Below, one piece after another: positions 45,879-48,800 of a stretch of 64,000 nucleotides of DNA. Position 1 is the stretch's first letter. Each line of letters opens with the position of its first letter. The stretch comes from Escherichia coli (GTDB lineage Bacteria > Pseudomonadota > Gammaproteobacteria > Enterobacterales > Enterobacteriaceae). A program made the position numbers. The stretch lies in assembly GCF_050920415.1 (NCBI RefSeq), contig NZ_CP169309.1. The stretch is one strand, 5' to 3'.

Positions 45879-48800
45879 TAAGCCTGACTTTATCTGATTT
45901 AAAAATGCCAGCCTTCGGGCTGGCATTTTTTATGGTTGAGTTACCAGCGACCGGAAGCACCGCCACCGCCAGAAGAACCGTCACCTCCGCTAAATCCGCC
46001 ACCACTTGAGCCGCCACCAGAACCGCCGCTGTCTGAATGATAACTTCTACCTGATGCTTTTTTCTGTGGGACACATAACCAGGTAAAGACCATAATGATG
46101 GTGAAAGTAAAAAAGAAGGAAAATACAGCAATGGAAAAAGTTTGATCGGAGAACAGGAATAAATCTATAAGATAGACTGTTGAAATACAAACACTGCTTT
46201 TAAATGCCCGACAAAAATTATTGCCTTGATGAAAAAACCAGAAAGGGAAGAACATCACTGCAAATACCCAAAAAATAGCAAAGTAGTAATGATCACTGGA
46301 AGACGCTGATTCACTTTCTGAAGGATTAGACGAATATTGGTGTTGTGAAGTGAGTTGGTTATTCAAAGCGATTATAGCTAACTCTCATCCCTTAGCTAAT
46401 TTTTGTTTTTTAAAGGCGGGTATCATGATGTTACGGATGATATTGCCAGCCAGAGCATCGGTTACCTTTTCTTCCAGCCCATAACCTACCTGAATGCGGA
46501 CAGTTCGATCCGACCAGGCAACAACGATCAGTATCCCATCATTACGTTTGGCATCTCCTAAACGCCAATTGTCAAAAACCCTTGTAGCATATTGTTCAAT
46601 AGAATCGCCTCCGGTGGATGGCACTATTAATACAGCGACCTGTGCCCGTGTTTTTTGTGTAATATCCTGCAGCTGTTGTGTCAGTGATTGTTGTTCAGAC
46701 GTGCTTAAGGTACCAGTAATATCGGTCACCTGTTGGCGCAGCTCCGGCACAGCAATTTGCTGGGCAAGCACAGGAAGGCACCATAAAGTGAGTAGAAAAA
46801 GGATTATACGCATAACGATCACCAACGGTCGGATGAACCGCCACCGCCAGAAGAACCGCCGCCACCGCGGAAAGAGTTTTTCGACGAAGAACGAGAATGA
46901 GCATTACGATTCCCCGTTTTCTTGTTGCTTTTATGCCCTGATCCCAGTTTAAGATTGCCAGTAAATTTGGCCACAATGATCAGCAGAACGATGCCAGCAA
47001 TGGTTATTGGGCCGATAAAATGATCAATTAGCCCAATAATTGTTGAGATGAACGCAATATCTTTATTACTGGCGAATACCAGGCACCATCCCACAACAAT
47101 TATCAGCAGCACGACAAACAATGAATTTCGTCCTGATTCACGAACCTGCGGAGCCTTCTTTTGTTTTTTCACTTTAGCGTTTTTATTTTGGGGGGCCAGC
47201 ATCATAGGAAATGTGCGGCATATATTAAAAACTACCGCGAGACGCTGCCAGCAGATTGCTGCGAAAAATAAACTAAAACAAACGACCGATACCCGCCGAA
47301 TGATGACATCGTCCTGAAAGGAGAAAAACCAGACCATAGGAGTAATCATCGATATCATCCATATGCCAGGCCCGGGACGGCTGGTAAATCGCCAGAGGAC
47401 AACGATGGCAACGATCATCAGTAATGTCCAGGCAAGACATGGCAGCGAGCGTTGCGGATTAGCAAACAGATGATTGGCTAAAGCATCCAAAGGGCTAAGA
47501 TTCGCTTTTATATAGGTAAACTGTGCGATGCCTTCAATTCCCTGCGTTAACCCGGAGAAGAGATTATTTTTTTGAATTCCGGTTGCATATGGTAATGAAC
47601 AATTTGCGCAGCTTGTTCCGGTGGCAGCATCTCTTCCAGTCCATGCCCAATCTTCATTGACGCCAGCCCTTCCGGCCAAACGACGAGAATTAAGATACCT
47701 TCGCCGTACCGCTTCTCTCCAACAGGTTTCCAGTGATATAACCCGTAGCTTTGCGAGGCTGCAAGTTTAATGTCTTTACCCCCAGTGGTCAGCGTTACCA
47801 ACACGGCAACCTGAAAGTGGTTTTGCTGCTCGAGAGTCTGTAATTGTTGAGTTAAAGCAGTTTGTTCTTCTGTCGTTAATGTCCCGGTTAAGTCAGTTAC
47901 TGAAGGCAATTGTTCAGCGAATGCCTGGAAACCACATAGCATCAGAAGTAAGAGAAAAATACGCATTTCAATTCCTTTTGTTACCAGCGCCCGGAGGCGC
48001 CACCGCCGCCAGATGAACCGCCGCCGCCGCTGAAATTATCATTGTCAAAAGAGGATGAAGAGGAAGATGACGACGATGATGAAGAACGCCTGGAGGCCGA
48101 GTTACTTCTTTCGTAATGTGACGGTCGGTTGGCACTGCGCATCGAATCCCGAACCTTTTTGCCGAAGGGGGTAAAAGCGATGGCGACAGCCAGGAACGGT
48201 GTGGCGAAGCAGAGTAATGTTGCGAGTACTCCCCAGCTTCCGCTGAAACCTGCTATAGGTAAAACAAAGGCCAGTACAATAGCTGTGAAGCAAATTAGTC
48301 CCAGCGTTTTGACATATCCTCTGGCGGAAATAAAGGTCAGTACTATTGCCCAGACTAACAAAGCCCACCAACCGCTAAAGGGCAAAGGGTGATCGGTCGG
48401 TGTTATCGCTTCTAAATTATTCCCCGTCAGACGATTATCAATATCGCTTATTCCCTTTTGCAAGCCGCCAGCAAGGTCGCCATTTTTAAATGCCGGAATA
48501 ATACTGTTGCGAATAATTTTCCCGGACTGCGCATCCGTAATAACGCCTTCCAGTCCGTAACCGATTTCAATACGCACGGTATGATCCTGCCAGGCGACTA
48601 ACAGTAGAACGCCATCATCGCGGTCTTTATCTCCGGGTTTCCAGCTATCGAATACCCGCGTTGCGTACTGCTCGATGGTTTCATCGCCTGTGGTTTCAAC
48701 CACTAACACGACCAGTTGTGCGTGGCTTTTTTGCGTCAGCTCTTTAATCTGATTGGTCAACGTATTTACTTCATCGTTCGTCAATTTGCCGGTTAAGTCA

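Follow-up and report, generated by a model that had tools for sequence, protein, structure and literature searches.

Does the in-frame TGA that interrupts the ygcG orthologue in a 64,000-nt stretch of Escherichia coli DNA (the window) mark a genuine, inherited loss of the gene, or can it be explained by an error, by recoding, by a working truncated product or by selection for loss? Over 45880-49700, the sequence matches the E. coli MFDS1022581 chromosome (NZ_CP169399.1) at 100% identity. RefSeq places lemA and three TPM-domain genes between queE and eno, all on the minus strand, the TPM genes being annotated as 'incomplete, missing C-terminus', 'frameshifted' and 'internal stop', which correspond to paralogues 1, 2 and 3, respectively. 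The third gene is already labelled 'TPM domain-containing protein, internal stop'; the lesion is on record in public annotation and is not a new finding. The reading that we consider best supported, with a probability of roughly 0.9, is that the TGA is a genuine, vertically inherited nonsense mutation of a sublineage of Escherichia cryptic clade I, that it preceded independent lesions in paralogue 2, and that the gene cluster is eroding, most simply by relaxed selection. The features on which this reading draws are listed below.

45901..45931, no strand assigned: GC-rich hairpin (gccagcc-ttcg-ggctggc) with an A run on one side and a T run on the other, situated where eno and ygcG converge, probably a bidirectional terminator (read from the sequence)
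45941..46813, minus strand: ygcG orthologue (paralogue 3) of 873 nt with its terminal stop counted, made a pseudogene by an internal stop (RefSeq 'internal stop'; collinear with the K-12, CFT073 and ECOD1 genes of the same length)
45941..46384, minus strand: in-frame C-terminal remainder of ygcG, with a linker, hydrophobic segments and a Gly/Ser-rich tail ending GGGGASGRW (read from the sequence)
46385..46387, minus strand: in-frame TGA in place of an ancestral TTA (Leu) at ygcG codon 143, with 46386 as the changed base (sequence and orthologue comparison)
46388..46813, minus strand: remaining N-terminal ORF of 142 aa, with a signal-peptide-like N-terminus and a TPM domain that lacks the end of its last helix (Pfam PF04536; product deposited)
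46819..47966, minus strand: paralogue 2, 382 aa when intact, frameshifted in the window (RefSeq 'frameshifted'; intact in N96, CFT073 and SMS-3-5)
47567..47573, minus strand: A7 homopolymer, A8 in relatives, the frameshift site of paralogue 2 (comparison with relatives)
47981..48919, minus strand: paralogue 1, an intact ORF of 312 codons (302 aa if counted from MRNF, the CFT073 start), encoding a TPM domain, TM segments, poly-Ser and a Gly-rich tail (ORF, Pfam and alignment)
48903..49505, minus strand: lemA, first gene of the cluster (Pfam PF04011, 163 bits; annotation)

The internal stop codon and its products

Read directly, positions 46385-46387 of the plus strand are TCA, which gives TGA on the coding strand. 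Translation of 46828..45938 (minus strand) in one frame yields the TPM-domain part, a single stop and the C-terminal half, with no second interruption. The residues before the stop form a signal-peptide-like N-terminus followed by the TPM domain, ending ...KKQKLAKG, and those after it form hydrophobic segments followed by the Gly-rich tail (...GGGGASGRW) in the same frame. The upstream signal-peptide/TPM ORF of 142 codons ends at 46385, and a downstream TTG-initiated ORF (45941-46366) lies in frame 18 nt past the stop; when joined, both are collinear with K-12 YgcG (290 aa). The first-pass annotation had placed an in-frame TGA here in the context LAKG-stop-ELA, separating a TPM ORF and a TM/Gly-rich ORF of paralogue 3 that share one frame, in the positional orthologue of ygcG. 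Codon and context proved exact in the one-frame translation, the shared frame was confirmed by translation and by the ORF list, and the assignment to ygcG is borne out by the position of the gene next to eno.

The ancestral state of the codon was obtained by comparison with orthologues. At the DNA level, a K-12 derivative, ECOD1 and CFT073 read GGA TTA GAG where the window reads GGA TGA GAG. In a ten-allele alignment that includes the window, codon 143 is TTA in all nine orthologous alleles (K-12, CFT073, SMS-3-5, ECOD1, 2013C-4282, CB6837, FCI48, ERL06-2442 and FP4), each of which carries a terminal stop only. Gly-Leu at the stop site is also invariant across paralogues 1, 2 and 3 (protein alignment). 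Because the codon is TTA in 9/9 orthologues and the leucine is invariant in the paralogues, one T>G transversion on the coding strand at window position 46386 suffices and, by this comparison, explains the change from TTA to TGA. The earlier proposals of a leucine in the paralogues and of a single substitution from TTA are both upheld by these alignments. The first-pass annotation had also named a sense codon in orthologues as grounds against the stop; such a codon, TTA, is indeed what K-12 and the other comparators from other lineages carry, where it marks the ancestral state rather than an error. As in nonsense pseudogenes generally, the orthologues have a sense codon with in-frame homology continuing beyond it, and the same stop recurs in independent assemblies.

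The TPM_phosphatase domain of Pfam (PF04536) spans residues 29-151 of the intact 290-aa protein. The window fragment matches this profile with 131.5 bits (gathering cut-off 22.1) over positions 1-114 of 125, about 91% of the profile, and the intact CFT073 orthologue matches with 127.4 bits over positions 1-123 of 125. Pfam and solved relatives place the stop inside the C-terminal end of the TPM domain, in its terminal helix, and not cleanly between domains. Translation would halt within the last helix of this periplasmic domain, and the product would be at most a secreted fragment of 142 aa that lacks the membrane-spanning anchor and the Gly-rich C-terminal half. Membership in the TPM/YgcG family is indicated by the profile match and by positional orthology, the gene being placed alike relative to eno in the K-12 derivative, ECOD1, CFT073 and the window, but the frame that should run uninterrupted through the TPM domain and the C-terminal half is broken by the TGA at codon 143. 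Judged in this way, the window copy reads as a pseudogene of the family and not as a functional member, and ygcG is probably effectively inactivated. ygcG is the last gene before the hairpin that it shares with eno, so that the stop has no downstream polar target. A promoter/terminator consensus scan, whose counts were no higher than in shuffles, missed this hairpin.

Independent synthesis of the distal half would need a start of its own. The sole nearby one, read from the sequence, is the TTG at 46366, which has no well-placed Shine-Dalgarno; the nearest purine-rich stretch, GGGAUGAGAG, ends about 15 nt ahead of it, a wider spacing than a normal Shine-Dalgarno would allow. The first in-frame AUG past the stop, as translation indicates, sits within a hydrophobic segment, and the distal half appears to have no credible restart site. 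Translation of the proximal half is affected from upstream. Because of its frameshift, paralogue 2 is translated no further than 47547, about 730 nt ahead of the ygcG start, a start that normally follows the paralogue 2 stop by 5 nt. Any translational coupling between paralogue 2 and ygcG would consequently be lost in the window strain, and even the 142-aa fragment is probably poorly expressed.

These observations bear on the suggestion that the truncated gene still works, with a soluble periplasmic TPM fragment of 142 aa, possibly together with a separately initiated membrane half, keeping or gaining a function. We regard this as improbable. The weak start of the distal half and the uncoupling of translation by the upstream frameshift both count against it, as does the loss of the invariant Gly-Leu motif and of the greater part of the final helix, even though the signal peptide and most of the TPM profile are kept with a strong Pfam score. 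Persistence of the allele in strains that differ by about 1% elsewhere, and the deposition of the fragment as a protein by gene callers, would agree with a functional product, but this lineage is also losing the neighbouring paralogue, as expected of disuse rather than of refinement.

UGA is the codon for selenocysteine and the leakiest stop codon in E. coli. Programmed recoding, in which selenocysteine insertion or efficient read-through at this UGA yields the full-length protein, would therefore use a suitable codon, and the two halves are in frame with little further damage. A search for a SECIS-like stem-loop 3' of the UGA found none: the ~60-66 nt from the stop have an MFE of -6.5 kcal/mol, no better than shuffles (z -0.33). 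An Rfam E-value scan of 45850-49700 returned only sub-threshold chance matches and no relevant element, and a selenocysteine or read-through signal was rejected on these two results. Orthologues and paralogues have Leu at the site, and not Cys or Sec, the periplasmic TPM domain offers no redox context, and the allele is limited to a rare sublineage. Recoding is thus extremely unlikely in our judgement. Low-level UGA read-through, which would place Trp at the invariant Leu, may still supply a small amount of full-length protein.

Distribution of the TGA allele and order of the lesions

An 81-mer spanning the codon was matched exactly in only two complete genomes, MFDS1022581 and N96, the latter from a Tibetan pig in China. 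A single base separates the 81-mer from its counterpart in B2 strains, CFT073 and Nissle for example, and in CFT073, where this was checked, that base is the G. The allele was also searched for with 55-mers built so that every 28-nt megablast seed contains the mutant G, a design that alleles with other flank variants would escape. On the window flank background, TGA was found in 2 of 5,426 complete E. coli genomes, and on the K-12 or ECOD1 flank backgrounds the same 5,426 genomes gave no match. Four NCBI accessions contain a protein identical to the 142-aa product, with source names that include Escherichia sp. 10290 and Escherichia sp. HH154_1D. Two of the encoding chromosomes, AP025751.1 and AP025747.1 (both 'Escherichia sp.'), carry the TGA.

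The base is therefore the same in at least four assemblies that come from different laboratories and countries (Korea, China and Japan) and that differ elsewhere, and the TGA is hence real and inherited and not a read error. A sequencing or assembly error, with TTA in the true genome and an intact gene, is accordingly given very little credence. Small errors of length do occur: the window and the near-identical AP025751.1 (0 mismatches in 10 kb) differ solely at three intergenic A-homopolymers, so that homopolymer lengths in at least one of the two assemblies are not fully reliable. The change in codon 143, however, is a substitution and not a difference in homopolymer length, and both assemblies agree on A7 in paralogue 2.

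The lineage of the window strain was approached through a 4-kb core segment from ppnN to truC. This segment reaches at least 99% identity in only 13 of the 5,426 genomes named E. coli, and it has about 97.1-97.6% identity in the listed records of other E. coli, whatever their background. Its nearest neighbours include EC42405 and 2013C-4282, both listed as clade I (PMC10100065). Among the 'Escherichia sp.' genomes with the TGA, which belong to STEC/ETEC strains of cryptic clade I, that of 10290 comes from a clinical STEC/ETEC hybrid assigned to this clade (PMC10100065). Since the segment is nearly equidistant from other E. coli and closest to clade I genomes, the window strain MFDS1022581 very probably belongs to clade I, as far as one core segment can tell. 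The clade I strain 2013C-4282 has TTA at the codon and intact paralogues 2 and 3. Clade I is thus polymorphic for the ygcG stop, with the TGA confined to a small sublineage.

Comparison of the window with N96 provides a view of the history of the haplotype. The two differ by about 1% over 49 kb, yet they are identical, except for one base in an A run, from 45880 to about 47720, a segment that spans ygcG completely and extends through the 3' half of paralogue 2. Across 47724-49514 they differ by about 3%. This distribution is that of a recombination mosaic whose breakpoint falls within paralogue 2. Among ygcG alleles with TTA, those closest to the TGA allele are of the SMS-3-5 type, at 98.1% identity. 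The exact TTA-repaired protein of 290 aa, the 146-aa version from the TTG start and the 141-aa distal ORF have no entry in a collection of 15 billion proteins.

Paralogue 2 occurs in three states on the TGA haplotype. It is intact, with 382 aa, in N96. In AP025747.1, it is split by an IS3-family element of ~1.3 kb at about window position 47520, with A8 kept. In the window and in AP025751.1, it carries the A8>A7 frameshift, a state seen in no other of the 151 complete genomes that share this flank. Because intact, IS-disrupted and frameshifted copies are found on one TGA haplotype, the ygcG stop came first and is older than the two independent lesions of paralogue 2, with decay continuing. The first-pass annotation had also taken paralogue 2 to be frameshifted, which the change from A8 to A7 and the RefSeq annotation bear out, and had suggested ongoing decay, a view that is strengthened by the three states. 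Taken together, these comparisons point to a stepwise erosion of the lemA-TPM cluster in this clade I sublineage that is real and continuing.

Paralogue 1 has escaped so far, in agreement with the earlier claim that it alone remains intact. It has a full TPM domain, and its full-length ORF is collinear, with 91% identity, with the CFT073 protein that is annotated intact, differing mainly in the length of poly-Ser. The 'missing C-terminus' flag that it bears in RefSeq is also attached to equivalent full-length ORFs in SMS-3-5 and W2-5. The 'partial' paralogue 1 features in other strains are 224 codons (672 nt) long, from which we infer that the PGAP flag is probably an artefact of evidence alignment. 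In ERL06-2442, paralogue 1 is genuinely truncated to 224 aa, yet it is annotated as a protein.

Selection on ygcG and its relatives

To account for the erosion, both the constraint on intact alleles and the changes on the TGA allele have to be considered. Pairwise dN/dS among alleles is 0.2-0.37, indicating that intact copies are under purifying selection. In the ten-allele alignment, the TGA allele has five changes that no other allele shares: D69G, R103 (synonymous), L143*, G271 (synonymous) and G278D. Only the last two fall in the half downstream of the stop, which has accumulated no damage, so that either the stop is recent or the region is still constrained. Five unique substitutions are too few to separate relaxed from maintained constraint. 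Relaxed constraint in one sublineage would be enough to account for what is seen; that loss was positively selected is possible but unsupported.

Selection against these proteins had been offered at first pass as one reason for the state of the cluster. It finds no specific support here, given the purifying selection on intact alleles. In its general form, adaptive loss would mean that selection favoured the stop and, later, the lesions of paralogue 2 because these envelope proteins are costly in this lineage, for example as a phage or immune target. Three independent inactivating events on one haplotype agree with this, and so do the structural variability of the locus across E. coli and the identity of the TGA segment in a pair of strains with 3% divergence immediately upstream, which is consistent with transfer by recombination. 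The allele is, however, rare (2/5,426) and absent from the other flank backgrounds tested, paralogue 1 and lemA are intact, and drift in a small lineage accounts for the same data. We consider adaptive loss unlikely. A more specific form places it in the clade I sublineage that carries Shiga toxin and enterotoxin, with the ygcG stop as the first of several selected inactivations, spread by recombination; this seems very unlikely, and if true it would point to a fitness cost, for instance of a phage receptor or of a surface component recognised by the host. The simplest cause of the erosion would remain relaxed selection on a dispensable and highly variable locus.

As one more lineage-specific pseudogene, already flagged by annotation, the TGA has little weight alone. 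Read together with paralogue 2, which may be intact, IS-interrupted or A7, it provides a compact series of markers for a clade I sublineage that includes a clinical STEC/ETEC hybrid. The locus would also serve as a natural experiment in which YgcG and a paralogue appear dispensable in at least some Escherichia, and this bears on assigning a function to the LemA/TPM cluster.

Comparison with known systems

Literature searches brought up no title or abstract centred on ygcG. YgcG of K-12 (b2778) has the same position, convergent with eno, the same length of 873 nt, and the same order of signal peptide, TPM domain, hydrophobic segments and Gly-rich tail ending GGGGASGRW. The two genes share 91.6% DNA identity over the 3' ~700-777 nt. 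They differ by the TGA at codon 143 of the window copy and by a very divergent N-terminal half (dS 0.64). No alignment to the window was obtained for the 5' ~170 nt of K-12 ygcG or for its neighbour yqcG, and K-12 has neither lemA nor paralogues 1 and 2. A blastn comparison of this K-12 region with the window gave no homology beyond the 3' part of ygcG, the queE side and short matches to the Gly-rich tail. The idea that K-12 is a simple deletion derivative of the four-gene cluster was rejected on this non-homology of yqcG and the ygcG 5' end.

The cluster itself is found in CFT073 and in other B2, F and clade I strains, where queE and eno enclose the four genes in the order seen in the window. 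The annotation of CFT073, CB6837 and FP4 gives each of the three TPM genes as intact, whereas the window has the stop in paralogue 3 and the frameshift in paralogue 2. Coverage of the four-gene region reaches 80% or more in about 1,100 of the 5,426 complete genomes, and most genomes have only ygcG and yqcG, or ygcG and a hypothetical gene, as in the K-12 type. Some genomes have lemA, paralogue 1 and an unrelated gene; W2-5, one of these, keeps no other member of the cluster.

The best solved relative is BA41 of Bizionia argentinensis (PDB 5anp; E 2e-22), which has the same overall design, with a Gly-rich tail ending GASGGW. BA41 and the structures 2kw7 and 7tbr align through the terminal TPM helix that holds the mutated Leu. 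BA41 is a distant homologue from another phylum. Among the genes that PGAP classes as 'internal stop', the window copy is typical, with a single substitution at a conserved sense codon, in-frame homology beyond it and a distribution restricted to a sublineage. The feature is an ordinary lineage-specific nonsense pseudogene, and nothing sets it apart from that class except the documented follow-on lesions in the adjacent paralogue 2.

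Lesions in paralogue 2

Among the three TPM-domain genes downstream of lemA, paralogue 2 is broken by the contraction of an A-run from A8 to A7. Of 151 complete E. coli genomes that share this flank, only that of the window has the A7 state, but GenBank AP025751.1 has it too. In the sister genome AP025747.1, paralogue 2 is broken instead by an insertion of about 1.3 kb from the IS3 family.

Window 47567-47573, - strand: A-run, frameshift site of paralogue 2 (homopolymer contraction A8>A7)
AP025747.1 locus (L014) about 2981-4289: IS3-family insertion in paralogue 2, equivalent to about window 47520

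Across 10 kb, the window and AP025751.1 were compared and found to have 0 mismatches and 3 gaps, with all differences falling in three intergenic A-homopolymers. These suggest length errors in one of the two assemblies, or hypervariable runs.

Window 51100-51152: intergenic A-homopolymers differing from AP025751.1

Annotation of paralogue 1

In many strains PGAP gives paralogue 1 the flag "incomplete, missing C-terminus", despite a full ORF that extends to GGGGASGRW. The flag is probably an annotation artefact stemming from the evidence protein, because the flagged length of 224 codons matches the truly truncated 224-aa protein of strain ERL06-2442.

Window 47981-48919: paralogue 1
Loci of other strains, L006 2409-3332, L007 3001-3936 and L010 2655-3359: paralogue 1

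Repeats elsewhere in the window

Just past queE, short arrays of repeats spaced by 61 nt and containing GTTCCCCGCGCCAGCGGGGATAAACC were observed, which the annotation of relatives gives as CRISPR. The window stretch aligned to the array of N96 (about 50723-50910) is mismatch-dense, and these mismatches may represent different spacers. Separately, three tandem repeats of ~77 nt at window about 5700-6111, with a spacing of 110 nt, match three tRNA-Met genes in the N96 annotation.

Window 50682-50902 and 51396-51494: GTTCCCCGCGCCAGCGGGGATAAACC repeat arrays, 61-nt spacing

Mosaic structure and lineage

Relative to N96 (L004), the stretch 45880-49514 is a recombination mosaic with its breakpoint within paralogue 2: no SNP separates the two strains between 45880 and about 47720, and some 55 (3%) do so between 47724 and 49514. 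Their overall divergence is about 1% in the 49-kb region. The queE-eno interval exists in at least three structural versions: the K-12 type, the four-gene type and the W2-5 type. Neither the 5' end of K-12 ygcG (~170 nt) nor yqcG, the small gene beside it, shows DNA homology with the four-gene cluster (K-12 derivative locus L003 2435-2730 versus window 46640-49700). For the N-terminal half of YgcG, the dS that separates K-12 from the window is about 0.64, a very high value within E. coli.

In a core segment of the window (e.g. 26000-30000), the strain is about 97.1-97.6% identical to almost every one of the 5,426 complete genomes, going by the records listed. Though deposited as E. coli, the strain behaves as an outgroup lineage, and its nearest relatives in this segment are recognised cryptic clade I strains.
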